DNA of 54,672 nt, counting the filler, from Basidioascus undulatus (Eukaryota): assembly GCA_000826855.1 (NCBI GenBank). It is 3 parts of 3 records of this genome, joined end to end, with 100 filler letters (N's around TTAATTAATTAA, not from the genome) between each part and the next. Parts side by side here need not be neighbours in the genome. Positions count along the whole stretch, not along the records: positions 36,550 to 54,672 come from JTLS01000483.1; 2 more parts are not named here. One strand, written 5' to 3'. The position numbers and the translations under genes are program-made. This document shows positions 5,316-54,672 of the stretch, piece by piece. Positions within the stretch are counted from its first letter, which is position 1, and each line of letters starts with the position of its first letter. The notes beneath the pieces were generated by a model. That model worked only from the letters and a program-made list of their open reading frames with translations. It was not told where the DNA came from and made no database searches.

Positions 5316-7578
5316 CTATTTCTTACTCCTCACCAGCCCCGTCATCATGTCAAAGCTGTTCCCATCCGGCTGCAGATCGATCGGCTCAGGAGCCTTCCAC
5401 GCGCCTCCTCCCCAGTATCCGAGAGACGACGGCGGGTCGACGGGGTACGTGCGCAGGAGGCCGTGCTCGGGTGTGATGCCCGCGATGCGCACGCGCTGCG
5501 GAGGGGTGGTGTCGACGAGGGTGACCTCTTGGTCGCTGTTTTCATCCGCACCATATCCATCAGTATCCGAAGCCGAAGCGGAAAGAACAGGGAAGAAAGG
5601 GAAAGGACAGGAACGCACGAGTGCAACCACCGCTCGTAGTACTTGTCCTCGAACGGGGCGAAGCCCTGCCGCTCGAACACGCCCCACATGCGCTCGAACC
5701 GCGCGCACACGAGGGCGAGCGTCCGCTCGAGCGTGGGTGCCGGGGCGGTCGGGTCCGCGCGCGCGACGAGGTCCGCGAGGCACGTTGTCGGGCGCGAGTT
5801 GAGGACGTTGAGGCCGCAGCCTATTTGAGGGCGCAAGGGGCTGTGAGAAGACAGGGGAGGGGAGACGAAAGGGAAGGACAGAGACGAACCTATCGTGAGT
5901 GTGAACTCGCCATTCGCAAACTGCGAGTTAACCAGTATCCCCCCGAGCTTCCGCAGCTCCTTCTTCCGCTCCTCGCCCACCACCTCCGCGTACAGATCAT
6001 TAGGCCACTTGAGCCGGACGCCGACGCCAGCCCCGTACCCCTCCTCGATCGCCTCGCATACGGCGAGCCCGACGAGGTACTGTACAAGGACGACGCGCGC
6101 AGCTTGCGATGCCGGCAGGCGCGCGAGGAACGAGAACTGCAGGCATCCCGCGGGGGAGACCCACACGTTCGAGCCGCGCCCGCGCCCGGAGAGCTGGTGC
6201 GATGCGAGCGAGAGGAGGAGGGAAGGGAGGTGAGGGAGGAGGTGCGGGTTGCTGGGTGAGTAAGAGTGGTTCGGGATTAGGGGATCACGGAACGCTGAGG
6301 AGAGGGAAGGAGAAAGGGTAGAGGGGAAGGAAGAACGCACTTGTCCAACAACGTCTGCGTACTCGTCACCGCCTCCCCATAAATCAACAGTTCACCCAGC
6401 CCCGGCCCCTGTCCTTCCCTCGCCCCAATCCTCAACCCAACCCTCTCCCTCGCGCGCCCCAATTCCTCCCAAAACGCGCCCACGTCGAACTTCGGCGTTT
6501 CTGCGCGCCCTGGAACCTGCCCTGGCTCCAGAACCACGATCTCCTTCACTTCTGCATGGAGGTCCTCGTCCCCCGTCCACTTCCGTGAGCGGGCGCGGGA
6601 GAGGGCGGGGTGCAGGGAGGAGGGGGGGAAGAACGTGATGGTGTCGTTCCCGTGTGGGGAAGTGAGGGGGCGGTGGTAGATTTCGAAGGAGTCGGGGGCG
6701 AGTGCAGCTGAGAGCCGAGAGACGAGGGCGTGGATGAGTGTGGGGCGGGAAGGGTGTGCGCAGAGGAATTGGGGGAGGAGGGTGGGCGTTGCTGCCGGAT
6801 CAGGCGTGGACATGGAAGGAAGGAGGCCCAGCACACCGAGCAGCGAGCGCATGAGCGCTACGCGCCGCCGCTCGGTGTCTTCCACCTCCCCTTCTCGCCC
6901 CGCGAACAGCCCTCGTGCAGGCTCCTGCGTGAGCGCGTACTCCGGGTGCGCGCCGCAGAGGACTGCGGTCCCTCGCCCGATGGAGCAGCGCACGGCGGCG
7001 ATCGCGGACGTCTCGGCGTATCGGGCGAGGATGAAGACTTGTGAGGAGGGGGAGGCGGGCGGGACGAACTCGCAGCCGCCGTTGAAGTACACTTCGAGCT
7101 GGGGCTCAGCGGATCCCGCCAGCTCGCCCTCCAGCGCGAGTCGTACCACCCGCGCGCCCGCCTCCGACTCGTACACGAACCCTGGGAATGCCGGCCCCCT
7201 TGCGATGCCCGGCCAGAACCCCAGATCCCTCGCGCCCCGCACCTCCATCCCCTCCTGCCCCACCGCAAACTCGACTTCCTTCGCGGAGAAGTACGCACCC
7301 GCGCAGAGGGCAAGGTACTTCCCGCCCAGCTCGACGTACGCGCGAATGCGGCGTGTCCCCCGGGGGGAGAGCGCGGAGACGTACGGCAGGTCGCGCCCGC
7401 CGGGGAGGACGAGAAGCGCGCAGGTCGGCTCCCAAGGGGAGGTGAGGAGCTGGGAGGGCGTGAGGGGCTGGACGGAGTGCGTGGAGGAGAGGAGGGCGGA
7501 GAGGGTCTGGGTCGTATTGCGGAGAGAGAGGGGGGACACCCCGGGCCCGGAGTAGATGAGTACGTTAGGGCGCGACAT
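5316..7578 (-). CDS. BPL1: Biotin-protein ligase (holocarboxylase synthetase) with N-terminal BPL_N domain
   Basis: NVLIYSGPG, LVLPGGRDLPY, LALCAGAY, GAHPE; ligase motifs GEAVTSTQTLL, QLSGRGRGSNVWVSPAGCLQFS, RLKWPNDLY, KLGGILV, GCGLN; C-terminus LQPDGNSFDMMTGLV; about 3 introns. Confidence 0.96.
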
Positions 7579-18176: not shown

Positions 18177-18276
18177 NNNNNNNNNNNNNNNNNNNNNNNN
18201 NNNNNNNNNNNNNNNNNNNNTTAATTAATTAANNNNNNNNNNNNNNNNNNNNNNNNNNNNNNNNNNNNNNNNNNNN
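18177..18276. other. Artificial contig-joining spacer
   Basis: 44 N + TTAATTAATTAA (stops in all six frames) + 44 N. Confidence 0.97.
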
Positions 18277-36449: not shown

Positions 36450-36549
36450 NNNNNNNNNNNNNNNNNNNNNNNNNNNNNNNNNNNNNNNNNNNNTTAATTA
36501 ATTAANNNNNNNNNNNNNNNNNNNNNNNNNNNNNNNNNNNNNNNNNNNN
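36450..36549. other. Artificial contig-joining spacer
   Basis: 44 N + TTAATTAATTAA + 44 N. Confidence 0.97.
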
Positions 36550-36644
36550 TCCCTGCTCCCTCATCTTTCCTCTCCGCCATCCTCATATTATCTCTATACG
36601 CCCCCTTTCTCCTCTCCCTCCCCTTTCTCCCTCCTAGCACCTCC

Positions 36645-36932
36645 ATGCGCCTCCCCGGCGTCCTCGCGCCCCTCTTCGGACTCGCCATCGCCGCAGTCAG
36701 CGTCGCAGCGAGCCCGGTCCAGCAGCAGCACCCGCTCGAGCTCGAGCTCTCGCACGGCGGACGAGGCGGGGAGGTGGCCAAGAAGTCGCACTTGAGCCAC
36801 TGGGCGAAGAAGACCAAGAAGGCGTTCTTGGATGATGTGCGCGAGGGGCGGGGGAGGAGGGAGGGCGCGCTCTTGGTTCGGCGGCTGTTCGAGCCGGGTA
36901 GGGGGAGGAGCGGGTGGCCGATGCTTAGCTGA
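36645..36932 (+). CDS. Small signal-peptide ORF; possible internally deleted exopolyphosphatase-like relic
   Basis: Signal peptide MRLPGVLAPLFGLAIAAVSVAA; LSHWAKKTKKAFLDDVREGRG recalls the segment before the GNEAGDLDS motif of basidiomycete DHH exopolyphosphatases, but that motif is absent. Confidence 0.35.
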   Translation: MRLPGVLAPLFGLAIAAVSVAASPVQQQHPLELELSHGGRGGEVAKKSHLSHWAKKTKKAFLDDVREGRGRREGALLVRRLFEPGRGRSGWPMLS

Positions 36933-37152
36933 TGATAGATTGATGGAAGGAGAGAGGGAGGGATCACCGCTTACGCCACGCACACTACACTACTTTCCAC
37001 CATGAGTCGATGACGCCCGATTTTCGGACCTTGTATCCCCTCCTTCGGACCTGCACTCTTGTATCCGTATCCGCATACCTGCACACACATCCACACACCA
37101 CTTGCGCGCACTGCCTCCGGGTGCCTGATCTGTGTCTGCATGCGCGTGCGGC

Positions 37153-38100
37153 TCATCTCAACCCCGCGGACGCAGGCAATCCATCGCCGAGCCCCAGCAC
37201 TTTTTTCAGACGCCGCCGCACCATCGCGCTTTCCTTTTCCAGCAACATGGCAACCCTCCCTCGCGCCGCCTCGTCGCCATCGAACGAAAAGACCGTCGCG
37301 CTCCCAAAATCGATCCACATCACATCGACATCCCACTTCCCCGCTCCCTCCTCCTCCCCCTCCTTCTCGTCGTCTGTGCTGGAACTATCCACGCGCACGA
37401 GCAGATTCCGCGCAAACGCGTCCCCATGGAGCACCCCGCGCTCATGCACGCGCTCGAGCGTGCGCATCGCGCGCTCCAGAACCGCGCGGCGCTGCCCCTC
37501 CGTCCACGTCAGCGTTTGTGGAGGGGATTTGTCCAGCGTCGCGTGGGTGTGGACGTGTGAAGAGAGGACGAGTGCGGGCATGGGGGTCTGGGAGGGGCTT
37601 TTCGAGTAGGACAGGAGGGCGGGGAAAGGCGGGGCGAGGAGAAGGAGGCCATGCGCGAGTGGGATTGCGGATGGAGAGAGGGGCTGGAGGTGCGCGTAGG
37701 TTTCGATTTCGGTTGATAAGGGTTGGAGTATGGAGGGGCGGGGTTGGTGAAGGGAAGGATGAGGAGGGGTTGGCATACAGGGGGTTGCCGGGCTGTTCTT
37801 GGTCGATTCTGGCGGCGCGAGGGGTCCAGGAGGTTCGGGTACTGGGTTCAGATCAAAGTTCAGCGCAACACGAGATCTTGGGGCTTTGAACGGGATGAAG
37901 TGAGACGCACGACTTTGAGGATCAATTCTTCAGTACCCGCATAGCCTGCACCAGGCGGAAAGGTAAGCAGAAACACGTCTGCTTTTGGGCCGCGCGAGAG
38001 GATCCGCGCGGAGAGGATCAAGTCCCATGGGAGGGCAGTCTGCGGGAGCGGCAAATCGAGGAAGTGCGTGGAGACGGAAGCATGGCACGGGAGGGGGGAG
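37153..38100 (-). CDS. Protein-kinase-like fold protein (atypical fungal kinase)
   Basis: LILKV beta3 lysine, EIETYAHL helix C, VHERGVLHGDAFARNLL catalytic loop, WIDFGSA; 5' exon joins uncertain. Confidence 0.75.
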
Positions 38101-38492
38101 GATGTGGCGAGGAAGCAATAAGAAAACAGCAAACGCACGCGCGGCAGCTGCCTGTCGAACAGCTCATTCCGTATTGGACCTTTGGTTCGATGTCGCTGGA
38201 TTTGACCAAACACTACTATGCAATTAAATGCCCGTAAAGTATATCATGTGTGTATGGAAGAGTTGGTAATGCTGACAAATGTGATGTGAGAGAAAGATCC
38301 CGACGACGAAGAAAACAGGGAAGGGGGAAAGAAGCCACTGGCGCAGTCGACATGGAACCGCAACTCTATAACAGTTTATCTCAAGGGTATACACAGGAGC
38401 CTCCAGTAAAAAAATCTATAAGGAAACCCTTCAGATGTTTGCCCCAATTTGCCCCTCAGTTGATGTTGTCTACAAGCGTAGACAGGCCCTGC

Positions 38493-38550
38493 CGAGGAAG
38501 GAAGTGCGAGGAAGGAAGTGCGAGGAAGGAAGTGCGAGGAAGGAAGTGCG
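38493..38550 (+). repeat. 14-bp tandem repeat (CGAGGAAGGAAGTG)x4
   Basis: Four perfect copies read directly. Confidence 0.95.
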
Positions 38551-38589
38551 TCAGTCGCTTGTCAAGTCCGACAACATGCACCTGGTCTA

Positions 38590-40135
38590 ACTTACCTGCT
38601 GAGTCCCAACCAAGTGCTCGAATTGCGGTCTGTACTGCTCTACGAGTGCACAATTGCGCATGAACAGACGGAACGCGCGTGGGTCCAGCACGGGGTAATA
38701 CGTAAAGTGCTGCCCGGCGCAGAAACTATTCAGCGCGGAAAGGAAGATTGCATTCGCCAAGAATTGCCACTCACGGTTTAGATCACCCGGAATGGGGAGG
38801 TCCCAGCGAATAGGCCACCGAAGCAGCGCTCGCTGGAAGTCTTCGGACAGCAGGAAGTTGAGGAACAGTTTGGCGGCCTCCGGTTATTGAGCAATAGGGC
38901 AGCCAGCGTGAACGAACCGCGCGTAGTGAAGTGACAGTGCGGTTGTTGCAGTTGAGGACCTCAAACGAGGTGTCGGTCCCCCTTACCCATAAGATGTCTT
39001 GATTTTGAATGAAAGCGATGATCTGCACCGTGAGGCGATGCAACATCAACTGAAGGCCGAGTGCGTAACAGCATCAACCAGCACGTGCCTCATCCTAGCC
39101 ATTACTGCTGCACGAGGAGGTAGAACCTAAGGTTGTTTTTCAGAGTCAGTGCCAGGCTGAATACTAAGTGGAAAATTCTTACTGAAACAGGACCGCGTCG
39201 TCGTCGTTCGGATAAGTGAGGGCGAACTTGCCCTTCCATTTCGGGTCTTGGAAGCGGGGAAGTCCCGAGGTGCTGTTGTTTCGTCCAATCCAGGGACCCG
39301 TTGGGGAAAGTGGGCCCGAAGTAGAAGAAGAAGTAGCCGCTGCTCGGAACAGGACGCTCAGCGCTGACGCATAAAGCAATGAGCGACATTGCAGGGGCGC
39401 GCATACCTCCAATACTCCTCGGGGTCTTTCGCGAAGTCAAAGACCTTGTCGAAGCCAAGAGGCTTGTACTGCATAAGAGCCTCTATACAATCCCATAGCT
39501 CAAGTGAGTCCCCAGTAACGACAGTCCCTACACGACAACGTACCCTCGTCTTTCCATCGGTCAAAATCTTGCAGCGTCTGCAACAATACGATATCGGTCC
39601 CAGCCATTCCCGTGAGATTGAAGTTGCTATCGATAGCACCGTCGTGATACTAAACGGACGAGGAGGGTCAGGGATCAACGGTGTCGCTGATGAGAGCTTC
39701 CGAAATATACGCCAGAAAGCTCGGCCTACCTTAGAGAAGTCCACCGACCAGTTAACGTTGATTTAGGGAATCTGGCCTGAAATGCGGCCATCGCTGCGAT
39801 GGAATGAATGTTACCGACCGAAAGCCGCCTGGGAGGGTGAGTACATGTATAGTCACTGGCATCCTGCTGCCCCTCCCTGCTCGTACGCTCCAAAACGTAT
39901 GTCGAGCTGCCCGCTTCAACGATCACAGCTTGGTACATCTCGTCGAGAGACCGATGCTCAACGCTTCGGCAGTATTTTGATCGGAACCTTCGGCGGTTGC
40001 AGCTCGGTTGAGGCCTACGGCCAGACGTTCGGTGGGGAATATCTTGGCTTGAGTTAGCTTGTCTCCAGCGGAGCTCGGTGTCGATCGCGCATATGGAACA
40101 CTGAGTGCGAGCAGGAGAAGGGTGGTGTAAAGCAT
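38590..40135 (-). CDS. Secreted periplasmic-binding-protein type II-like protein (ABC Fe3+/thiamine-binding-like), possibly frameshifted
   Basis: Signal peptide; RSLDEMYQA, AFQARFPK, VDFSK-YHDGAID, LQTLQDFDRWK, YKPLGFDKV, DPKWKGKFALTYPNDDDAVLF, WVRGT, AAKLFLNFLLS. Confidence 0.8.
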
Positions 40136-41233
40136 ATCTAGTCAAGATCAGCAGGGTGTGCTAACTTTGAAGAGGGGACAAAGAGACGACCTCATCCCAA
40201 AGATCTCGGACTTTATAACAGGCATGCCGAGAGTGCGAGATGTGGCTCAGCCGCCGAACCGCCGCATGCGTAAGTTGGGATGCGTCGTGATCAACGGGAT
40301 CAAAGAGCTAACAAAGACCTGCTACGGGACCTCCATAACGCTTCCGTGGTGTTTCCGACATTTAATTAACGTTCCGCAACAAACATACTCGCAAGCGAAA
40401 GGTGTGACTGTACTTCCACCTCCGCACAGCCAGCCACCTCGACGTTGGAACACCCGCCACAACCGCAACCGCTCGCTCTTCGCTGAAAAACTCCCAGCGT
40501 GTCATTCCGTTGCTTTATTGGAACTATGGCAACACCTCAAGTATCAAGTCCCATCAAGCACTCGCTAGTCTGATGACAAGCCGTTGATCGTCCGTGCCCA
40601 TGAAGATTTCCCGATCGGATTATCAACCAACAGGTTGCTCAAGACTTTCCGACTGGGGGTTCTTTGGCTTCCGTCGAAAACTTCCGAGTACTTGAGGCAG
40701 TCATCCGAACGCGCTGACATGCAGCCGTACTCTTTCGCAAAGCGCTTCGAGCCTTGCTTGCCACGAGCCACTGCAAGAACTTGCAGGCGCAAACGAAATT
40801 GAGTCGCTCCTTCAATGTTTACACACTATGACATTCTCTTGAACCCATCTTGCAGAGGGTACATCCGTCTGTGTAAATTGACTCGCAAGACGTAGAACTT
40901 CTGTGTTGCCAGGCTATGACCATTTTGGGGACAATCCCACGGACGGCCTCAGTAGTATTCCACAGCAGCTCATTTTTTTCTGTCTACACTCCCGTAATCC
41001 TGAAACTGTTATTGATCAAGCAACATGAAAAGCAGCATCAAGTTGCCTCAAGCCAGTAAAGTGTATTCGGCCGAAGACTCCGCTCCGAAGGTCGTATCGG
41101 GCGGCTCGCTCTGTGCCGATCGGCAATCTGCCGTCGATAAGCCTGCTTGACTCGCTCCTCTGGAATCTGTTGCACGCGATACGCCATTTTAATACGCGAC
41201 CACCACCATCATCATCCTCTGCACTAACTGAGC

Positions 41234-43697
41234 ATGATGACCTCCTCAGCGACGGTGCGCCAGCCGCAGCTGGAGCCGCCTAAACTTGAATCCATAGAGA
41301 AGACGCCCTCTAGAGCACTGCTCGAGCAGCCGTCGCTGCCGCCTGCCCTCGCTGTAGATATAGAGCGCCTCCCGGTCGAGGACGACCCGAGGGAATGGTC
41401 GGATGCTTGGAAGGTAAAGTATGTTCAGCTTTTAGTCTACCCGCTCATGGTGGCTGAGATGCGGATGTTCGGTTGGCCAGAACGCAACGCTATTTTGTAT
41501 ATCTTTCGCATCGATGTCTCCCACATTCTGTGAGTCGACAGTCCAGTAAAATTTATGCTCTGCCCTCCGGCGCTGAAACAAGCTCCCAGCGGCATCAATA
41601 TACAGTCAGTTACCCTTCGCATCCCTTCTCCAGGGCGCTCACTTACGCAACGCTGCCTTCCACAGCACCCGCAATCAATATTATTCAAAGTGATCTGTAT
41701 GGCACGAGCGACGACATCTCACTATCGTTGGCGTTATTCATTCTGTGCGCTATCAATTCATATGCCGTCCCTCTCCGGTTCAGCTCACAGTCGCACCTTT
41801 GCACAGGCTGCAGGGCGCGACGCCTATCATCTGGTCTGCACTGTCGGAGGTCAAGGGCAGGAAGATAGTATACCTCATCAGCCTGACCCTGGTCCGTTTA
41901 CTCGTTTGAGGCACTCTGATATTCCATGATTGCTCATAGACACTGGTGTGCAGTTTACGGTCGGCACCGTTGTTGCCTCGAGAGCGATGAACATGGGGTC
42001 CGCAACCGCTGGGCCCTGAACTTATAAACAAAGCGCTGTTCTGACTGTTCGGCCGTGCTACAGTGTTCTCATCGGCATGCGCTGTCTCGGCGCGATCGGA
42101 TCATCCGCTGTATTGTCTATAGGTGCTGGAACGCTAGCCGTACGTACATTTCCCTCTGACAGGCCGCGTGTAGCGCCTTCCCTTTTTAGACGCTCACACT
42201 CCCGTGGCTTGCTACATGTAGGACATCTACGACACGAAGGAGCGAGGAACACGTATGGGCATCTACTATGCATTCCCTCTGCTTGGCCCTGCCTTATAAG
42301 TTGCTTCTCGCCCCCGGACCCTTTTGTGCAAGCTGACACGCGCTTTCTGTCCGCACTGGTCCTCTGTTGGGAGGGCTTCTCACACAGGTGTTCACTTGGA
42401 GAGCAACATTCTACTTCCTGTCAGTCTGCCAAACTTTCTAGTAAGCATCACGGCGCTGACCGTTCACCTCCACTGCAGCGCCTCTATGGGCGGATGTGCT
42501 GCCGTCTCCTTCCTCTTTTTTAAAGACACCTTCCGCCGGGAGCGTTCCGCGGCGTATATAGCCGCACGCAAACGCGCGGTTGCTCACGCCGTCTTCAAGG
42601 CTGAGAAAGGCGGTCAAGCTGCGGACTTTAAGGCCGAGGACGTGCAGGTCAGACTGACACTGGCGGACGTCAACCCGCTCGCGCCTGCTGGCCAGATCTT
42701 GAAGATGCCGCATAATCTCTGTGAGTAATAGCGGGAACAGGGGTTCCGTCAAAGCAAGCTGATAGAGTGGGCGTCGATCACAGGCACGCTTTTCTTCACC
42801 GGCATGATTTTTGCGTCGCAATACTCGCTGTCCATCACGGCGGCAAGGACATTTGCATTCGCGCCCTACAACTACGACACCCTAATCGTGGGCGCGATCA
42901 TACTCGCTTTCGGGGTCGGATCGGTGGTCGGGAGCGTGTTCGGCGGGCGCCGGTCGGACCACGTGCTAGCGAACCTCAAAGCGAAGAACAACGGCGTGCA
43001 CGAACCAGAAGTGCGCCTTTTCTTTCAACCTCAGACTATCACCGCCCTTGGCTTAACGCTTAACAAGCATAGTTCCGCATCCGCTCCATCCTCTATGCGT
43101 TGCCTGTTCTGCCGGCCTCGTTCCTCGTGTATGGCTGGATCGCGGAAACTCACCAGCATGTCGCTGTGTGCGTCGTGATCTTGTTCATCGCGGGTGCCGC
43201 GATGGCCGCGACGTACTCTCCCATGCTAGCCTACGTGGTGTCCGTCATTTTGCCATCCGTTCTTCAAGGCAATAGCTGAACCCACAGCCTTTTTTGCATT
43301 GACAGTGACTCCAACGCAGGCCGCTCGTCATCCGCTGTGGCGTGTAATTCCCTTTCTCGAGGCCTGTCCGGATTTGTGGCATCGATGATCGCCATTCCCC
43401 TACAGGTAGCCCTCCAACCTTTTGATCTTTTTTGAACGCACACTGATCGACACCCCTGCCCTATTCAGAACGCGATCGGAGACGGTCCCTTGTACACAAT
43501 CTGGGCCGGTCTGATATCGGTGAGTCCTTTCTCGTCTGCACGCTCCGAGCCTGTCAGACCAGCTAAGCCATTTGAGCAACATTCAGTTTGGGGCCATCGC
43601 CATGCTGTTTTTGGTGCGGTTCGGGACGAGCTGGCGGGATCCGGAATGGAAATGGCGGAAGGGGCGGAATCCCGCCGCTGGGACTGCCGAAGCATAG
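41234..43697 (+). CDS. MFS drug:H+ antiporter (DHA1; DTR1/QDR-like)
   Basis: DIERLPVEDDPREWS, QGATPIIWSALSEVKGRKIVY, GSSAVLSIGAGTLA-DIYDTKERGT, FKDTFRRERS, GSVFGGRRSD, DSNAGRSSSAVACNS. Confidence 0.9.
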
Positions 43698-43843
43698 ATT
43701 CAGTTCCGTTCGCTAGCCTACCATGGACTTGTTGTATGTCAACGACAATATTCGTGATGTTCAACAGCCTATCAAGAGACAGCGCGACACTCATATCAAG
43801 TAGGGTAAGAGCATGAATGGTTGCGTGCGGCAGAGCACACCTT

Positions 43844-44782
43844 CTACGAGGTGCCCGACAGAGATACCCCTTCCAGTTCCCAGAGAGTACCCTTCTCCAC
43901 CTCACTCCGAATCCACATCATCCTGTTCTCCATCATATGTTTATCGTCCAGCACCGGCGCTCTCAGGAAAGCCACATCAAGACCTTCCCGTGCCGTCCGC
44001 GCCGCCACCCTCATCTCCTGCAACGTTTCCAGATCGTAAAATGCCCTCTGAAGTTCCCGACCACTGATGAAGATAACCCTCCGCAGGCTTTTTCCCCGCT
44101 TGAATAGCTTTTGTATGATCGGTAGCCCTGGCTCGGTGGCCTCGAAATCTGGTGTGTCGAGGACGAGATGGGTGAGGTGCGGAAGAGCGATGATGGCCTC
44201 GACGAAGTGAACGTCAATGCCTGGATTATAGATCGCAAAGCGACGAAGAGAGGTCCATCCCGGCCAGCAGACCCAGTAGTCAAGGTCGTCGAGAGGGGTA
44301 CCCAGGAAGAATTCGCACTGGATGGAGACAGCTTCCTCGAGCTGGTGACAGGGCGCGAGCGTTCCACGTAGGAGCGGGCGCACGCCGTGCTTGTCTTCTT
44401 CGGGCCAGAAAATCCTAAGCTGCCGATCGAACAAAAGCCGGCGAAGGAAGGGGCGGACTAGGACGAGGAGCGACGCGAGGTCAGTCGACGACGGCGGGAG
44501 GAGGGCGTGAGGGAAGTCGCGGAGGGAGAGCGAGCGGGTGTGTTGGACGTGATGATTAGCAAGAGTCGACAGTGCGTTAAAGAGCTTCGTGAGTTGCAGG
44601 GCGGAGGATATGATGATGGTTGAATAGAGGTGAGGGGCTGATATGCGGTAGAGGTCGCGGCTGACAAGACAAAGCTCGAGGAGGGCCGCTTGAGCGTCGC
44701 GTTCGCGGCCGTATTGCAGCGGATGGCTTGGGAAAACCAGAATATCGACGGCGTGTTTAAGTAGATCGGTAGGGATGCGCAT
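43844..44782 (-). CDS. F-box-like protein, single exon
   Basis: MRIPTDLLKHAVD...LLELCLVSRDLYRISAPHLYSTIII; LRR-like LRRFAIYNP and LPHLTHLVL; uninterrupted ORF. Confidence 0.75.
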   Translation of the reverse strand: MRIPTDLLKHAVDILVFPSHPLQYGRERDAQAALLELCLVSRDLYRISAPHLYSTIIISSALQLTKLFNALSTLANHHVQHTRSLSLRDFPHALLPPSSTDLASLLVLVRPFLRRLLFDRQLRIFWPEEDKHGVRPLLRGTLAPCHQLEEAVSIQCEFFLGTPLDDLDYWVCWPGWTSLRRFAIYNPGIDVHFVEAIIALPHLTHLVLDTPDFEATEPGLPIIQKLFKRGKSLRRVIFISGRELQRAFYDLETLQEMRVAARTAREGLDVAFLRAPVLDDKHMMENRMMWIRSEVEKGTLWELEGVSLSGTS

Positions 44783-45124
44783 CGAAAATCGAGGCTCGAG
44801 CGAGTGGCGAAGCTGATCGAGGGGAAGGTCGTGACGATGGAGCAAGACGAGCGGAGGCGGCCTTCCGAGCGTCCGCCGTCTTAGTCCGGAGGCTGTGCTT
44901 GCTAACACGTCCGGTTGGCCGCCACAGAAAGTGGCGTATACTCAGATATCTGCACAGATTCGTGGAAATACCACTCGAACCAATAACCGGAGTCGGACAG
45001 AATTTTGAGCTACTGGGAGGTAGCCGGCTGGCTGTGGGACAACTCCATATTGGCGTTGCTTGACGGATGTCCATCGACTTAATACAGACATCATGAGAAT
45101 CAGGTCTCTTTAATATCATTTCTG

Positions 45125-45295
45125 TTAAAGTCCCGCATCGTACAGCCACTTGAGTACGCCCTTCGCCCCACCCAACCCTGCCAGCACGAGCGCAAAGTGC
45201 GCGACTCCAAGTCCAAGCACAAACGGCAACACGACGCTCGTCCAGGTGCTTCCGTCGCCGGCGCTCGCGGATGTGGGGCCTCGGGGTCGCACCAT
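45125..45295 (-). CDS. Small single-TM hypothetical protein
   Basis: MVRPRG...WTSVVLPFVLGLGVAHFALVLAGLGG hydrophobic stretch; 56 aa. Confidence 0.35.
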   Translation of the reverse strand: MVRPRGPTSASAGDGSTWTSVVLPFVLGLGVAHFALVLAGLGGAKGVLKWLYDAGL

Positions 45296-45752
45296 CAAAC
45301 GGGGCTGAAGTGGGTTGATGTCTTGGCTCGGATTGGGCTGTCGAGGGGACGCAGCGCGGGCGGACGACTGCTGGAAGTGATGAGTCAAATAAGGAGGGAT
45401 CGCATGAGGCAGCGGCTCATGGGGTCACCTCTGGCTTGGAGGGCATCATGCAACAGTAGAACCGTTTTTGCAGAAGCAGACTAACGGGGCTGTTTGAGCC
45501 GGTTGTGGTGAGTAAACAAGAGGCAAACAGCGTGTTCTTTTTAAAGTTCCGTCGCGTGGGAGTTGAGGGCACGGCAGTCGTCTTGATGCATTGTTTGGTC
45601 TTCTTGTCATCTTATCTTGTTCGTGGATGAATAAACCTGGGAGCTGAAGTGTAAAAAGAAGCGTTCTAACTTGCCAGTGTCCATGTCTGTGGTCGTTCCA
45701 ACCGCGGGGGACAGTAAGTGAAGTCCATCGGCGTTCCCTGCTCCTCCTCCCC

Positions 45753-45765
45753 AAAAGCAACAAAA
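45753..45765 (-). terminator. Putative RNA Pol III terminator (T4 runs) after the tRNA 5' half
   Basis: Minus strand CTGTTATGA TTTT GTTGC TTTT directly follows A37. Confidence 0.6.
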
Positions 45766-45774
45766 TCATAACAG

Positions 45775-45858
45775 TACGAGTGGCGCGCTCTACCACTGAG
45801 CTAAAGGGGCCTATTCAATACGTGCCCCCTGGCTGGATTGAACAACCGACCTCACCAT
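45775..45858 (-). tRNA. Circularly permuted tRNA-Thr(CGU): 3' half (45858-45823), 12-nt spacer, 5' half (45810-45775)
   Basis: Minus strand: ATGGTG AGGTC GGTTG TTCAATC CAGCC AGGGGGC A | CGTATTGAATAG | GCCCCTT TA GCTC AGTGGTA GAGC G CGCCA CT CGT A; the reordered halves give a complete cloverleaf. Confidence 0.9.
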
Positions 45859-46823
45859 TTCGCTGCCACACAACTAACATGTCGCTGCATGTAGAGAGAA
45901 ACTTAAGACATCAGAACCAATCAAGCTTACGAAAGCTCGTCTATGGCACAATGTTTATTGAACTTTGGCTGTACATGCTGAAGTGTAATACTTCTGATAA
46001 GGTACTCCAAACAACGTTGGGATATCCGATAAAGCACGGCATGGGTGTTATTTGAAATTCCACGCAGTCACTGTGTCTATCCAGCGGTGTAGCCTTTTCA
46101 GTCGTGAAGTATAGAACAAAGTTGGAGATAAATATGATGAATAACATGCCAGATTTTGGCCACATTTTTCAAGATAAAGAGTCACCAGAGTCACTGATCA
46201 GCTTCATCATAACTGGCCAAACCGTGGAGAGAACTGCGCTGCCGCTCTGTGTTTGTTTGTGTGCTCGTTTCAAACATCCAACACAGCACGCATCTTGAGA
46301 ACCCGAAAGATTTTAGGACCCTATGACAGTGAGCTGAAGTTTCGTCTGGACTCGAGATTAACATCTTCCATGGAAATTCTTAGAGCCGAGGACCCTCGCC
46401 GCGAGAGCAGTAACCTCAACGTTTACATAGACTGTGACTGGATGTCCACAGGAATCAACTTGAGCGTCTCAGATTACCGTTACTCGTCCGAAGCGGTCCA
46501 ACCAAAGCGTCAAAAAGCCTAAACATCAACCAGCGACGAACTCGCAACGCCTCATCGCAAAAAGCACCTCGGGCCATAAAGCACACATTAAGGGGTCCAT
46601 GTTACTATTCCCCACCTTTTGAGAGGAATTTAGGCGGTATTCTTATGCAAAAATACCCAAGGCGGCGCACTGCATGTGGCAGGCTGCTATCTTGCCGTCA
46701 GATCTCCATGACCTACTGTAGTGGAGAGTTCGTCCTCATAGCTCAGTCGCTGCTAACATAATGCAAACATCTTGTCATATCTCATTTCGAATGCCCAACG
46801 CCCACGGCCGTCCAAGGCCACGC

Positions 46824-47277
46824 TCACACCTTCTCCTCCATTGCCGCCCGGTCCGCCTCGGTTTCGGGACCCTCCTGCTCTGTCCAGAAAGTGCTGATCG
46901 ACGTAGCGAAGAGCACCAGATTCAAAGACCCCCTTTAATCCCAGCGAGACGCCCAGCTACGTCAGGTTCAGCCGCCTTCTCCGGCCACTCTGTGGAAATA
47001 CGCACCCAGAGGCGACCATAAAGTAGTCGCAGATTTCGTAGATCTGGACCAGCGTGTCTTCGTTGGGGTGCGGATCCCACAAGGCCATGTAGACTTCGAT
47101 GGAAAGGCTGGCACCGATTGCGAGGACCATGATAGCGGCGCTGGCGAGCACAACACACTCCAGAGTGGAAATGCTGTCGCCCTTGGGGTCTTGCACGGCA
47201 GGCTTTGCGTCTTCGGGCTTCGAGTGCGTATAAATCGACTGGCACGTCCCGATAAGAAGGGGGGTACGCTCGCTCAT
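46824..47277 (-). CDS. Small membrane protein, hypothetical
   Basis: MSERTPLL (dileucine-like motif), hydrophobic VVLASAAIMVLAIGASLSI, a probable GTGCGT intron and a second hydrophobic exon. Confidence 0.45.
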
Positions 47278-47956
47278 GGCCTCTGTAGGATAGATACTGG
47301 GGATTTCGGGAGTGTGTGGACGAGGCGACTGGGTAAACAAGGGGGAAGTTGGCCAACCCCCGCCATGTGGAGGAGCAGAGGGGGCGTAAGCAGTGCAGGT
47401 TGCGGCATACGGCTCGGCGGCGGTGAAAGTGGCATGCAAGTCTCGGACGTGCGCGCAGGGGGTGCCGCAGCGTGTTTGTCGAAGACTATAACAAAGCGCT
47501 GACATCCAACCTCCTTAAACTAAGGCTATAAAATAAACTGTTTTACTGTTTGGTTTACCCTGAAGACTTTTCGAAGTTGGTGAAGATGAGGCCACAGACA
47601 GTTTGATGTCGAATCTTTGGCCTGAGAGCTCAGTACCGAACCTACTCTGCAGCGCTTCAGGCCGAGGGTTCCAGGATGAGCACACCTTCGCATATACTGC
47701 TTGTTGAAAAAGAAGGTAACTTGAGTTGCTTGTAGTTGCTTGTAGTCTTACTTGGCACGTTGGCGAGCTGTGTTCGCATCTGTTCAGTGCGCTGCAAACT
47801 CAAACGAGCGGTGACCTCAGCACTTTCAACTTCTTTGTGGTATCGACCTGAAAGACCTTCAGCAACAAGTAAAGCTTTTCATTGAAGATCCAGCGGAACT
47901 TTGAACAGGACGGTCAGGATCTTGAGCGTTCCGACGTCCCTCATTGCGCGGCCACC

Positions 47957-48653
47957 ATGACCTTCTGGACTCTATCCTCATCGGTAGTGGGTGCCGGCTT
48001 TGATAATGACATATCTTTACTGACTGATGTTCGACAGACAAAAAAAGCGGTACTGAGGAATGCAGGTCGCTCGTTCAGCACCACTGCTCCGCAAGGCAGA
48101 GGCGAGTCGTCTTCAAACGCTCTCCACTTGAAGTGGTTCTTACCGGGCTTGCGACGGTTTGGTGCTCGTGAAAAGACGTCGGAGAGGTGATAAAGCAGGT
48201 CTACATCCGCGCTATCAAGGAGTTCAGGCCTCCTCCGCGTGTTCGCCTTCCTTCTCCTCGCCTCCGACACACTCACAACTCAGTCCTTTGGCCTTCAAAC
48301 AGAGACCCGACGACCACGTCGGACAGGTGAAGCCCTTCCGCGTGATCACGCCCCCTCACGCGCCGCAGCCTCCGTCCGGGGCGGACCTAGCGCTCGAGCT
48401 GCGCGCGTACGAGGCGGACGAGGCGACGTACGTCGACCGCGGGTCCGAGGCGCTGCACAGCCATGAGATCGAGAGCCTCGAGCCGTTCAAGGGGCGCGTG
48501 GACGACTGGCTACGCTGGCTCGGGGAGGAGTACCCCCACGCCGACGCGAAGCCGCCGCCGGTGGACGTCAACACACTTCCGCCGGCGCCGAAATTGGATG
48601 ATGCGGTGAAGGATGAGGGGGCGGGCGGGGAGGGGAGGGAAATAAAAGGGTGA
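47957..48653 (+). CDS. ATP14: Mitochondrial ATP synthase subunit h-like
   Basis: GCCACCATG start; presequence RNAGRSFSTTAP; VIKQVYIRAIKEFRP, DDHVGQVKPF, P-P-rich segment, ADLALELRAYE. Confidence 0.6.
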
Positions 48654-48807
48654 GGAGTTGAGAGGGCGCCAGAAAAGCACGGTTGTAAGTGTTGTGATGC
48701 AGCTGGGCGATGATGGAGGAAATGAAAGCGGCGTCTATGCCACCACAAGCAACATGTCCTGCATCTAAGCCCACAACACTCCATCAACCCATCTAAGCGT
48801 GCTCCTT

Positions 48808-51800
48808 CTATACCGAAAAGACGAAAGCAGGATGCCTGCTCCCCAAGCGCGCAATCTCCGCTTGGGACTGGGAGAAAGCCAAATCAGCCGCATGCAGCCG
48901 AACATGGGCTAGGACAGACGTACCTTCCCCTGGATCCGGTGATCCCGCTTCCCAGCCGCCCGCAGGCGGTTTTCGCGGCTGTTGTAAAACCATGCTAGGC
49001 AGACGAGCGCGAAGAGCCTGAGAGGCAGAAGCGGGGGTGAGTATGCTGGGATTGGATCAGCGGGTAAACGGAAGAGGGTCGACGGACACGCAGGTCGAGA
49101 CGAGGTTGAGGCGGTTGCCTGTTCGTAACGAAGATGGGAAGAGGAGAAAACAGTGTACTGGATGTCAGCTATGGGAGGATGCTGAGTCTCAATCTGCTAG
49201 AGACTGACCGATAGGGTAGTTCGGCGCTGGAGCGGGAAAATAAGTATTGTCAGTAAACCTCCTCGTACGGACCTGTTCTCAAGTGCCTCACCGTCCGACG
49301 GAAGGTATGACCAAGTCGCAGCGACAGCGCCGATGCTCGACAGACCGACGACCCTGCCCTTGCACTATTAGCGCTAACTTGCACTGCCATCCCTCGTTTC
49401 CTCAACGTACATAGCAACCGCCGTAGCCCGGCTCGTATCAGGTGCGACGTTGTTCCCGATCCAAGCCATGAGCTGCGGGCCATCAGACCTATCAGTCCTC
49501 CTCCACCTTTCAACTCGCTCGGATCACAAGCTCGCTCACGGTAGGCACGACGGTGAACACCCCCCCGGCAGCAAAGAACGCGGCAGCGTAGCGCGCGCGC
49601 GGGTTGTTGGTGCCTACGAAAATGGCGTACCTGTTTGATTTGGGACGTGTCAATGTGAGGAGGGAAAGGAGGAGAGGGGAGAGGAGGGAGGGAGGACGCA
49701 CCCGATTATTGAGACGGGTACGGAGACCATCAGGACTGCTGCGCGGCGGTTGAGCTTGTCGCATGCGTACGCGTGCGCGAGGGACCAGACGAAGGAGAAG
49801 CCTTTGCGTGCGAGGTACGAGGTAAGCGATCACTGCCGGAAGTGCGCGAGGAGAAGACGCACAAAACGGCGCGGCGGACTTGAGCTGCACCTGGACCATG
49901 GCTGTGACGGTTCGCGCGCTCGTGAGATGTTTGGACGGAATGGAGGAACTGGGAAGGGAGTACTCGCTGATGGGTCCAGTCCGCGCACGATGGCTGTTCC
50001 CCGGTGCCGCATGAGTACTGTAACAGCGGTCTAGAGCAAAATAGTAGAAAACGAAGCTCTCACTGGGCATGAACAGACTCAGACCCTGCACCGAGATCTG
50101 CGCGCAGATCGCTGCCTGCGCGCCCACACAGAGCTCAGCCGCGGTCTTCCAGCCTCCTACTCCTCAGCATCAGGCAACTCACGACGACGAATATGCACAC
50201 CTGCTCCGTTGCCTCATGAGCGTCGGCCCGTGTGGGGAAGAGAGAGAGACAGATAAAACGCACATTGATGCTCCCCACCCCCCTCCCCACAAGCCCCCAG
50301 TCTGTCCGCTCAACCATCTTCTTCCCCCCCGCAGGCGAAGCGACCGTCTCGCAGCGGACGCGGGCGATGGCGAGGGCTTTTCTCCCCGAACGTCAGTTAG
50401 ATGAATGGGGAAGCGGGGAAGATGTGGAGGTAGAAGCTAAAAAAAAAAAAAAGGACGCACTCCGCTCTTCGGGCGTGAGGAACCCCGCGTGGGCCGGCTC
50501 AGAGGGGAGGATGGGGCGGAGGAAGAGGAGCGTGATGAGCCCGCAGCCGGTCGTGATTATCCCTTCTACCAACTACGCTTCGCCATCCATCTTCCGCCCA
50601 TTAGCTTGCAACTTCCAAGGAGAAAAGGAAGAAGAGGAGCAAGAGGAGAAGACGCACGAAGATGTTCCTCCACGACTTGACGCTCCCGACGGACCCGACG
50701 TGCAGGATCCCCGAGGCGATGAGCGAGCCGAACGCGGCGGCGAGGGACGAGGCGGAGACGAATATCCCGACGCGGAGGACGAGCTCGCTTCGCCTGTCTA
50801 TTCGCACCATCGCACCAGCCACATCCCATTTTTCAGCGTCTCGTTCTAGCAAGGTTCGCTGGCGCAGGCGCACAGAAGCGGGCGAGGTAATGGGTAACGC
50901 CTTCAGGAGGAGGGTGAGCAAGAGAGGAGAGGGGAGGGGAAGGAGGAAAGACGGACCGGGCATGACTCCACCCTCCGTGAGGCCCAGCATGAGCCGGACG
51001 GCGATGAGCCCGCCATAGGACTGTATGAAGGCTGTACAGAGGGTTACGAGGCCGAAGCTTTCGGATCACGATACGCAAAGGTTGAGGGGAGGGAGCGCGT
51101 CAGCAGAAGAGGGGTGGGGGGAGGAAGGACGCCGGGACGCACCCAGTGAGGAGCAGCGCAAGCCACAGATGCGGCCCGATCGTCGCGGATTTGAGCGCGA
51201 GATTGGAGGGGACTTCGACGAGAGTGTAGGACTGTGCTCCACCCCCCACCAGTCAACTCAACACATTCCGGAAGCATGAGCCTGCGTGAGCGGGAAGACA
51301 CACGACGAAGAAAAGGGTGAGGGCGACTGCGTGGATGGTGGAGTTGTCAGACAGGGAAACGGAAGGGCGGAAAACAGAGGGACAGACTGTTGTATTCGTA
51401 CCCGTGCAGACCTAGGTCTTCTTCCAGGCCTGCTACGCGAGCGTTTCTGTCGGTGGGAGGCGAGTCATTTATGTGCTCGGGGGGCAAAGGAAGACGCTCG
51501 CTTCGCGTACCCGATGTTTGACCCTTCGTTTTCGTTCAAAATGTCAGCTGGAATAAGGAGGTGGTACTAGTGTGAGGGGGTGCGTACGGTCCAAGAAACA
51601 GAGACCTTGCATGATCTATCCCCAGCCACCCAACCTCGCTTCAGCATCCCAGAAAGAAGAGAAATGCGCCGCCTGCCTCAGCTCAACGCACGAACGCAAA
51701 TGTCACGAGCCTGATGTCCAACTGTCCCGCAAAAATCAGCTATTTTTCCAGACCAAGAACGGAAAGAAGAAGTGTCCACTCACCTTCCTCACGAGCGCCC

Positions 51801-51927
51801 GCTCCGCCTTCTTATTGCCCAAGAGCGGGTGGGTGCTCGGGTCCCCCCCCGTATCAACCGAGTCTTTCGACGCCGCCGCTTCCTCGAGCGTGGCCGAGAG
51901 GACCGAGGGCCTGCGGAGTGTCGTCAT
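48808..51927 (-). CDS. MFS anion:cation symporter family permease (TNA1/DAL5-like)
   Basis: AERALVRK, LLGLTEGGVMPG, YLARF-RRSELVLRVGIF, SWRNIF-VEGIIT, FLTPEER, VQGLSLFMP, RARYAAAFF, LGSRHPAFVF. Confidence 0.85.
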
Positions 51928-52243
51928 TCTTCCTTGAGGTGGTGGCTGTCTGATGAAAAGAAGGAGAAGGAGTGGGACGGAGGCAACGGGGCAAGGAAGA
52001 GGGGGAAAGATTCCCACGCACGCGGGAAGACCGATCAGGGCAGGGCAAGAAGGCGGAGGCGAGGCTTTGACTTCTTGCTGCCGTCATCATCAACGTCGCG
52101 CTCGTCGGGCGGTATAGCGAGCACGAACTTGTCGGCGACGAGCTCGAGTATTGTATACGTTGTTCCAGGACGAGCACGGTCATCTTGGCAGGAATTCTAT
52201 TCTCTCCATTCTCGCTTCCTCCCGCACCCCCTTCCCGCCCGCC

Positions 52244-53647
52244 ATGTCCGCCCAAGTGCCCACATCCACCACCGCCAAATACGGGCAGCTTGTCAACGGC
52301 CCTCCAGCCTCAGGCAAGACGACCTACTGCTCGGGGCTCAACCAAGTGCGCCCTGTGCACCATACCCTCATCCCCACCTCCCCACTCACCCTTCCTCCCC
52401 CGACAGTTCCTCACCGCCCTCGCCCGCCCGCACACCCTCGTGAATCTCGACCCCGCCGCCGAGCCGCCGCCGTACCCCGCGTCCATCGACATTCGGGACC
52501 TGATCACCGTCAAAGACGTGATGGACGAGTACTCGCTCGGGCCAAACGGCGCGATGCTCTACTGCTTCGAGTACCTCGACGCCAACTTCGACTGGCTCGA
52601 GGACCGCCTACGCGCGCTCCGGCCCGACGAGCAGGGCTACGTCGTGTTCGACTTGCCGGGGCAGGTGGAGCTCAGCACGGGCCATCGCGCGCTTGCGAAC
52701 GTGCTAGGCAAGCTGGGGAAGTTGGGGTATCGGGTGAGTCGGGCGGCTGCCTGGTGGGTTGTATGGCATGGGTAGGAGAGCTGAGCAACCCCCCTCCGTC
52801 CTGCGTTCGGGACAGTGAATAGCTCTGCGCGGTGCATTTGACGGACGCGCATGCGATTGCCGACCCGTCAAAGTATATCTCGGCACTCCTCCTCTCCCTC
52901 CGCACGATGCTCGCCCTCGAGCTCCCGCACATCAACGTCCTCTCCAAGATCGATCTCCTCAACACGTATGGGGAGCTGCGTGGGTCTCTCTTCCCTGCTC
53001 TATCTCCCCTTCTTACTCCTCTCCCTCTCCACGCCCTATTCGCTCTGCGTTCCGGCTAACATGGCACCCCCCCCCGCGCGTGCAGCGTTCAACCTCGACT
53101 TCTACACCCAAGTCCAGGACCTGCACCACCTCTCCGATCACCTCTCGTCGGATCCCCGCCTCGCGCGCTTCGGCAAGCTCAACGAGGCGGTGTGCGAGCT
53201 GGTTGAAGACTTTGGGCTCGTGTCGTTCGAGACGCTTGCTGTTGAAGTGCGTCTTGCACCTCCACGTCTCCTCTTCTCAAGCTCTTTTTTCCTTTGCATT
53301 TCGCTCTTCTCTAATTCGCCCTGACATCCAACCAGGACAAGCAATCGATGTACCGTCTCCTATCCGCAATCGACCGCGCCCTAGGCTACGTCTTCCTCCC
53401 TCCCCCTACCCCCGGCTCCTCCGCGCCGCCATCGGCAATGGACCTGTTCTCAACCGCCATGGGCGCGCTCCCCGAGTGGGCGGGCGGGGACGTGCAGGAG
53501 CGGTGGGTCGATGCGAGGGAGGAGTGGGACGCGTGGGAGCGCGAAAGGTGGAAGGAGGAGGGGGAGGAGGTGGAGAGGAGACGGGTCACGGAGCAGGGAG
53601 GGAGGTGGAGGGGGAGCGCCCCGGCTGGAGAGGGGGAGCGCACATGA
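52244..53647 (+). CDS. GPN2: GPN-loop GTPase 2
   Basis: GQLVNGPPASGKTTYC, VNLDPA, LGPNGAMLYCFEYL, FDLPGQVELSTGH, ELPHINVLSKIDLL, NLDFYTQVQDL, IDRALGYVF. Confidence 0.93.
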
Positions 53648-53971
53648 AGTGAGGTTGTTGTGAGAGGAAAGAGCGTGTGTGTGTTTGTCTGTGTGTGTGT
53701 GTGGTGTCTGTCGTTTGCCATGTGAAAGCGAGGCAAAACTTGGCAGTATTATATGCTTCTTGTATTCATAATTTTATTCGGAAGGCTTAGAATAAAAATG
53801 CTCCGCGAGAAGGCTGCACTTGGACTCGTAGGCAGTAGACCGGAAGACGCGCTCGAGATCGACGATCGCCCGCGGGCCGACTTGCACCTGAACACAACGC
53901 TCACCACCGCCTGCCTCTCGCCTCCCCCGCTCTCCCTCCCTCCCTTTCCCACCCGCACACAAACCACCTCA

Positions 53972-54672
53972 ATGGTACCCCTCTCCTCCGTCCCATTATA
54001 TCCCCCCACCGTATCTCATTCCCTGGCCCGCTGACCCGCAGATGCCTTGGCTCATCCTCGGCGCGCTCGGCGGCCTCCTCGGCAGCTGGCTCATCAAGCT
54101 CAACATCCTCTTTGCGCGCACGCGCGCGCGCTCGGCGTTCCTCAGCGAGAACAAGATCCTCGAGGTCGCCGTCGTCGCGGGCCTCACGGCCGTGCTCAGC
54201 TATCTGGTGCTCTTCATGCGGTACGCTATGCACACACTGCTCGGGACCTCCGCTTGCCGAGCCAAACAAACGCTGATGTCCGTCGGGCCCGAAACAGCGT
54301 CCAGTCGTCCGATCTCGTTGCGGCGCTGTTTCAAGAGTGCTCAGCGGATAGCTCGTCAGATGTGACAGACGCCCTGTGCGAGTGCGTCTTTGCTTTTCCC
54401 CAGCGCCCCCGAACAGCTTGCTCAACCCCGCCGTGGTTTCCCCACAGCCCGAACCGCCGGCTGGCTAACATCTTCCTCCTCCTGCTCTCCGCCCTTTTCA
54501 AGACGGTCCTGACAGCATACACATTTGGCATCTCCGTCCCCGCCGGCGTTTTCCTCCCCGGCCTCACAATCGGTTCGCTGCGCTCTCCCCACCCTTCCTG
54601 CGCCTACCTCCCTTCCCTCGCTTATTCCGAACATGACAGGCGCCTGCCTCGGCCGTGCGCTCGGCCTCCTCC
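53972..54672 (+). CDS. CLC chloride channel/transporter (GEF1-like), C-terminal half only, runs off the window
   Basis: PWLILGALGGLLGSWLIKLN, EVAVVAGLTAVLSY, LFQEC, KTVLTAYTFGISVPAGVFLPGLTIG-ACLGRALG; N-terminal CLC motifs (GSGIPE, GKEGP) not present upstream. Confidence 0.85.

Follow-up and report, generated by a model that had tools for sequence, protein, structure and literature searches.

Does a fungus carry circularly permuted tRNA genes, with the 3′ half placed upstream of the 5′ half, and are such genes likely to work? A review from 2014 counts 34 permuted tRNA genes, all of them from unicellular algae and one archaeon, and describes most eukaryotes as having none (PMC3978253). It also asks why other eukaryotes that possess introns at position 37/38 together with the enzymes needed lack permuted genes (PMC3978253). 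In the account of a 2026 review, the eukaryotic exceptions are still confined to certain unicellular algae (PMC13578239). We found no fungal case in a literature search by title and beginning of the abstract, with subscription journals largely outside its scope, which agrees with the preliminary description of this DNA, whose author was aware of no fungal example. A functional permuted tRNA gene in a fungus would mean that this layout arises and persists outside algae, and that it persists even where TFIIIC-dependent promoters and an endonuclease of the ruler type are to be expected. Such a gene would also offer a culturable system for pre-tRNA circularisation, related to genetically tractable fungi, and would reveal a gap in standard tRNA annotation.

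The locus lies in a window of 54,672 nucleotides from Basidioascus undulatus, by which we mean the whole stretch of DNA that was analysed. Its coordinates were read directly on the window. On the minus strand the order is leader, 3′ half, spacer, 5′ half and trailer, and the features are as follows.

45866..45877, minus strand: A-box-like motif TTAGTTGTGTGG within the leader region, a speculative promoter element.
45859..45867, minus strand: leader GGCAGCGAA, 9 nt immediately 5′ of A38, with GAA as its last letters.
45823..45858, minus strand: 3′ half of tRNA-Thr(CGU), 36 nt from A38 to the discriminator A73, bearing the B box and the T arm.
45811..45822, minus strand: spacer CGTATTGAATAG, 12 nt separating the 3′ half from the 5′ half, closing the acceptor stem.
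45775..45810, minus strand: 5′ half of tRNA-Thr(CGU), 36 nt from G1 to A37, bearing the A box, the D arm and the anticodon CGT.
45753..45765, minus strand: two T4 runs 3′ of A37, at 45765-45762 (+10..+13) and 45756-45753 (+19..+22), the presumed RNA polymerase III terminator.

When the two halves were rejoined by coordinates, ARAGORN called a tRNA-Thr(cgt) of 72 nt with an acceptor stem of 7 bp, a D stem of 4 bp, an anticodon stem of 5 bp and a T stem of 5 bp. All 13 positions checked in the rejoined tRNA are canonical (U8, A14, G18, G19, A21, U33, G53, T54, T55, C56, A58, C61 and A73), and the break falls between A37 and A38, the canonical intron position. The spacer at 45811..45822 contains no T run, and CCA is not encoded at the end of the 3′ half. 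A degenerate junction pattern, consisting of T-loop, acceptor 3′ end, 2-32 nt, acceptor 5′ start, D arm and CTNGTA, matched the window once, at the tRNA-Thr(CGU) locus, and matched none of 100 shuffles. A flawless rejoined tRNA and a single pattern match not reproduced in any shuffle indicate that the permuted layout is real and not the outcome of chance. By its layout, junction, spacer length, terminator and absent CCA, the locus is a type II permuted tRNA gene. The preliminary description had claimed a 3′-half-first arrangement with a 12-nt spacer on the minus strand, a full cloverleaf of Thr(CGU) isotype, a break exactly at 37/38 and T4 runs following the 5′ half; each of these points is borne out by the rejoined sequence and its flanks. 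Its further expectation that standard scanners would probably miss or miscall the locus also held, as ARAGORN reported no tRNA on the unrearranged window and Rfam no match at gathering score. With E values up to 10 allowed, Rfam returned the 5′ half as a partial tRNA match (18 bits, E=4) and no additional tRNA-like pieces in the window. Because both ARAGORN and Rfam miss the locus, annotations of genomes of this kind may wrongly lack tRNA-Thr(CGU) or give too low a number for it. When very long introns were permitted, ARAGORN proposed a tRNA-Leu(gag) with a 21-nt intron at 7048-7165 on the minus strand, inside the coding ORF of a biotin ligase; it is seen neither by default ARAGORN nor by Rfam and is almost certainly a false positive.

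A fungal host had been claimed as well, and the surrounding genes agree. The window has a G+C content of 57.5% and contains intron-split eukaryotic genes for a biotin-protein ligase, a sugar transporter, PGAP2IP, a GT20 glycosyltransferase, a GPN-type GTPase and CLC. The named matches to the biotin-protein ligase N-terminal ORF are fungal in all 120 listed, and the nearest among the matches listed come from Dacryopinax (43% identity), Calocera (44%), Tulasnella (41%) and Cryptococcus/Kwoniella (39-42%). Judged from these matches, the host is a basidiomycete with a ligase closest to those of Dacrymycetes, Tulasnella and Tremellomycetes, at no more than 44% identity, and the collection searched contains no sequenced organism closely related to it. 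An affinity to Ustilaginomycotina taken from one protein search was overturned by the search for nearest matches, which returned Agaricomycotina-like relatives. Among 605 Pfam-matched codons, ACG accounts for 14 of the 30 Thr codons, and a tRNA with a CGU anticodon is thus in demand. Directly behind the tRNA unit, on its downstream side, lies a gene (43844-45416, minus strand; 365-aa ORF) that belongs to no Pfam family, has a single unnamed distant homologue at 34% identity and appears to be lineage-specific.

Each half of the permuted gene might belong to a complete gene of its own. The window is composed of three contigs joined by linkers of 100 nt each (18177-18276 and 36450-36549; 44 N, TTAATTAATTAA, 44 N). 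Thus, neighbourhood across the linkers is not genome order, and partner halves were effectively sought over 36550-54672, which extends about 9 kb in either direction. In blastn-short searches, no second copy of either half was found in the window, the next best matches being 10 nt or shorter. The absence of a partner half, claimed earlier for several hundred bases, therefore extends to about 9 kb either side. The alternative that had been named beforehand, two tandem genes with long introns, can be discarded for the 9 kb to either side. Two adjacent complete tRNA genes were discarded in the same way, as 36550-54672 holds no further half and no tRNA recognised by ARAGORN.

It is highly improbable that the halves were misjoined at a tRNA repeat during assembly, even though the assembly is fragmented and stitched with linkers. 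We compared the locus with contigs from two public DNA runs of separate studies, designated X1 (2014) and X2 (2025). One contig of 7280 nt from each run (record 1 of X1 and record 9 of X2) leads from the unique downstream flank into the 5′ half and reaches 45800. Two others (record 6 of X1, from 45839, and record 13 of X2, from 45823) extend into the unique upstream flank. As long contigs of both runs attach unique DNA to each half, both orphan halves are real, and these are what a misjoin would leave unexplained. The window's own 12-nt spacer is carried by no contig among those listed for X1 and X2, a point that an artefact would account for. At 45811-45821 the depth is 0 in X1, and X2 has two shorter-spacer variants only among the contigs listed. 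A check of the locus against reads, which the preliminary description had proposed, tied each half to a unique flank at contig level and left the 12-nt spacer itself unbridged by the contigs listed. Two X2 contigs of 60 nt at single-copy depth (53.7 and 48.9) connect a 3′ half with a 5′ half across a spacer of 8 nt. This spacer is four letters shorter than the 12-nt one and retains the core TTGAATA. The two contigs link 3′ half and 5′ half independently of the assembly, which speaks against a misjoin, as does the size of the unit, since 84 nt is shorter than ordinary reads. Moreover, two single-copy contigs with a homologous spacer indicate that the unit of 3′ half, spacer and 5′ half was duplicated as a whole.

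The 3′ half occurs in several copies. A 40-nt contig identical to 45823-45862 has a depth of 302 in X2, where the baseline is 37-49, and a 34-nt contig over 45834-45867 reaches 93.8 in X1 (baseline 18-20) and 225 in X2 (baseline 37-49). Estimated from contig depth, the exact 3′ half has about 5-8 genomic copies, the 40-nt contig by itself pointing to about 6-8, and by the same kind of estimate the 9-nt leader GGCAGCGAA is common to about five of them. In the contigs listed, the paralogue leaders diverge upstream of -3, -10 (two contigs), -13 and -19. The letters GAA, and hence G(-3) opposite C32, are kept in every paralogue leader listed. Four other trailers 3′ of A37 are listed; in three of them a T5 run starts at +3, +6 or +8 nt, and the fourth resembles the T4-bearing trailer of the window. 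At a random window position, a run starting within 13 nt is found with a frequency of 0.83% for T5 and of 2.9% for T4. A T run right behind the 5′ half fits an RNA polymerase III terminator and would be harmful within an intron. The read-derived contigs suggest a small family of permuted units.

We consider it fairly probable from these sequence features that the units form a working multi-copy family of circularly permuted tRNA-Thr(CGU) genes, matured by the splicing endonuclease and a tRNA ligase together with RNase P and tRNase Z. According to the main rival explanation they are dead relics that exist alongside conventional genes: a Thr(CGU) gene with an intron would have been tandemly duplicated, the outer halves lost and the remaining unit recently spread by segmental duplication, with conventional genes supplying the tRNA. 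One X1 contig might represent such a supplier. This contig (record 3, on 45830-45861) contains a 3′ half with two mismatches and TCGTA 27 nt upstream, with 30 loose letters shown, and may derive from a conventional Thr(CGU)-like gene with a 27-nt intron. If so, the permuted copies need not be the sole source of tRNA-Thr(CGU). An intronless conventional gene would be recognised by A37 joined directly to A38. Such a joint was reported in no contig, though contigs cannot prove absence. Nevertheless, we regard the relic explanation as unlikely. Both halves are flawless and identical across about 5-8 copies although the flanks differ. T5 runs lie within 8 nt of A37 in three of the four other trailers listed, each with a chance of 0.83%, and random decay would not place terminators exactly behind the 5′ half at several loci. 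GAA with G(-3) is also conserved in all leaders listed.

Several copies in differing flanks would also be produced by a unit that spreads without decoding, be it a mobile element of the RNA polymerase III or SINE-like type or another small RNA gene derived from a permuted tRNA module. The homology between copies is roughly bounded by the short leader (-3 to -19) and the T run, i.e. by the limits of an RNA polymerase III transcript. In addition, the topology of the region 45754-45866 on the minus strand weakly matches that of the tRNA-like mimic YrlA (Y RNA-like, RF02553; 18.7 bits versus a gathering score of 69, E=2.1). Membership in this family of bacterial Y-RNA-like tRNA mimics was rejected, as the score is far below the gathering score and the match reflects the permuted tRNA shape. 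An origin as a mobile unit is in our view improbable, because anticodon loop, identity positions and all stems correspond to those of an ordinary decoding tRNA, the trailers vary among copies instead of being common, there is no body or tail past about 110 nt, and no convincing target-site-like repeats flank the unit. An 11-nt direct repeat with 10 of 11 letters matching is present at 45856-45866 and 45878-45888. Its first copy is the region of the 3′ splice site, made up of leader positions -8..-1 and the 3 nt with which the 3′ half begins, and it recurs in the leader 22 nt further upstream. The repeat may be due to chance or be the trace of a small duplication.

A working family would depend on correct cleavage before A38 and after A37. 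The strict form of the bulge-helix-bulge motif (BHB) is absent around the junction, as the central helix forms two of four pairs. The outer helix has one of five pairs in the canonical register and five of five, three of them G-U, when shifted by one. The absence of a strict BHB would suit dead relics. The junction does permit pairing of C32 with the leader G at -3, an anticodon-intron pair of the eukaryotic type. Work by Baldi et al. from 1992 reportedly found the anticodon-intron pair to be required for 3′ cleavage by the yeast enzyme. The eukaryotic splicing endonuclease has been likened to a ruler, taking its measure from the tRNA body and not from a local motif (PMC4090602). Free folding of the precursor is not distinctive (z = -1.03). 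When the cloverleaf is imposed on the fold, the leader forms a helix with the part of the trailer that contains the T runs. This helix would be absent if termination occurred at the first T run, and by eye it was not found in the trailers of the other copies.

The promoter poses a second difficulty for a working gene and a second argument in favour of relics, namely that the A and B boxes are reversed and no TATA-like element is apparent. In the permuted unit the B box in the 3′ half precedes the A box in the 5′ half. Fungi are expected to possess the box-binding subunits of TFIIIC. The B-before-A order is described in the 2014 review as unsuitable for TFIIIC (PMC3978253). Inspection of the 100 nt preceding the 3′ half showed no TATA-like element. 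The A-box-like motif TTAGTTGTGTGG is located upstream of the B box at a roughly suitable distance and can be regarded, speculatively, as a decayed D arm acting as a promoter element. Its region matches the D-arm region of the 5′ half in 11 of 15 letters, a value equalled by 1291 of 2000 shuffles. With a local alignment no better than that of shuffled sequences, the likeness of the leader to a decayed 5′ half was rejected as evidence and retained as an idea, and so was that of the trailer to a decayed 3′ half, its score being reached by 1412 of 2000 shuffles. A scan for promoters and terminators of the bacterial type is irrelevant to RNA polymerase III.

The position of the A box leads to a further possibility, namely that the halves are expressed separately and joined in trans like the split tRNAs of archaea. 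With the A-box spacing of the yeast type, initiation from the 5′ half would be placed in or near the spacer, as can be reasoned from the promoter description in the 2014 review (PMC3978253). This is the least probable of the explanations weighed here. There is no terminator in between the halves, and a distance of 8-12 nt at no fewer than three loci, i.e. at least 3, would be pointless for separate genes. We know of no split tRNA in the nucleus of any eukaryote.

A working permuted gene could mature as follows. RNA polymerase III would start upstream of the 3′ half, read through the spacer and the 5′ half and stop at the T runs at +10..+22. The transcript would fold into a normal tRNA body, in which the spacer loop closes the acceptor stem and the anticodon loop is open. 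The tRNA-splicing endonuclease, measuring from the body and aided by C32:G(-3), would then cut off the leader ahead of A38 and the trailer behind A37. Joining of A37 to A38 by the fungal tRNA ligase would result in a circle, provided that the ligase acts first. RNase P and tRNase Z would excise the spacer, their presumed target, whereupon CCA would be added and the tRNA could enter translation. In yeast, tRNA ends are processed in the nucleus, earlier than splicing. If nuclear end processing precedes cytoplasmic splicing here too, the spacer might be cut first, giving a nicked two-piece precursor and not a circle. Splicing of budding yeast tRNAs is cytoplasmic and takes place at the mitochondrial surface (PMC3978253). 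For algal permuted genes, the route through a circle was demonstrated by RT-PCR, according to the 2014 review (PMC3978253).

The closest parallel to the locus among these systems are the type II (37/38) genes of Cyanidioschyzon merolae, in which the 3′ half is likewise located upstream of the 5′ half on one strand (Soma et al. 2007; PMC3978253). Spacers measure 7-74 nt in C. merolae and 12 nt here, and are described as free of promoter and terminator there as they are here; over all published permuted genes the range given is 1-74 nt, so that the present spacer falls inside it (PMC3978253). Both systems share a T stretch behind the 5′ half, a junction at the intron site, the lack of an encoded CCA and exons of the ordinary eukaryotic kind (PMC3978253). 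In contrast, C. merolae is an alga with a BHB, whereas the fungal leader and trailer form no strict BHB and no TATA-like element was seen upstream (PMC3978253). Moreover, C. merolae is described as being without the box-binding subunits of TFIIIC, and it has single permuted genes for many isoacceptors, whereas we found several near-identical copies for one isoacceptor (PMC3978253). The genes of Ostreococcus, Micromonas and the Bigelowiella natans nucleomorph resemble the present ones in being nuclear eukaryotic genes with mostly a 37/38 junction and a proposed circular intermediate (Maruyama et al. 2010; PMC3978253, PMC13578239). They belong to green-lineage algae and have BHB-forming termini and AT-rich upstream regions as described there, whereas the opisthokont locus has neither feature (PMC3978253, PMC13578239). 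The tRNA-iMet and tRNA-Tyr genes of the archaeon Thermofilum pendens share the permuted order of halves (Chan et al. 2011; PMC3978253). Unlike the fungal gene, they have their junction at 59/60, an encoded CCA, BHB-dependent archaeal processing and a spacer of down to 1 nt (PMC3978253).

Among fungi, the intron-containing tRNA genes of Cryptococcus neoformans provide the nearest comparison, sharing the break point and presumably the Sen endonuclease and a Trl1-type ligase (PMC4090602). Introns at 37/38 are reported there for 132 of 143 tRNA genes (PMC4090602). In the permuted unit, leader and trailer resemble the opposite ends of an intron of this kind, down to a partner for position 32. In contrast to the C. 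neoformans genes, the exons are reversed and the "intron" is open-ended, and ligation would therefore close a circle. A route to permutation by tandem duplication has been put forward (PMC3978253), for which 37/38-intron tRNA genes like those of Cryptococcus would be the raw material. Starting from the sequence, we offer a wider reading tentatively and with somewhat less than even confidence: that these are the first permuted tRNA genes in fungi and in opisthokonts, that the majority, or even all, of about six tRNA-Thr(CGU) genes in a deep-branching basidiomycete have the 3′ half first, and that a circle is made by Sen- and Trl1-type enzymes without a BHB and reopened by RNase P and tRNase Z, maybe with a decayed A box in the leader as promoter. 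If most or all tRNA-Thr(CGU) genes are indeed permuted, this tRNA would depend on the ordinary Sen endonuclease and Trl1-type ligase.

Orthologous permuted loci in related organisms had been suggested as a check, and metagenomes provided none. All 86 matches to the junction pattern (85 loci) proved to be ordinary tandem tRNA genes of other organisms, so that permuted relatives number 0 of 86, a result that relics would predict as well. A complete downstream Thr gene is present in 83 of the 86 matches, the other three being cut by the contig end, and none of them resembles the tRNA-Thr(CGU) over more than 44 nt. In three of these metagenome loci (L040, L082 and L085), a complete tRNA-Thr(CGU) begins 4-5 nt behind a tRNA-Ser that is interrupted at 37/38 by an intron of 14 or 22 nt. 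They look like eukaryotic dimeric tRNA genes, and the first 26 nt in L082 agree fully with the tRNA-Thr 5′ half of the window.
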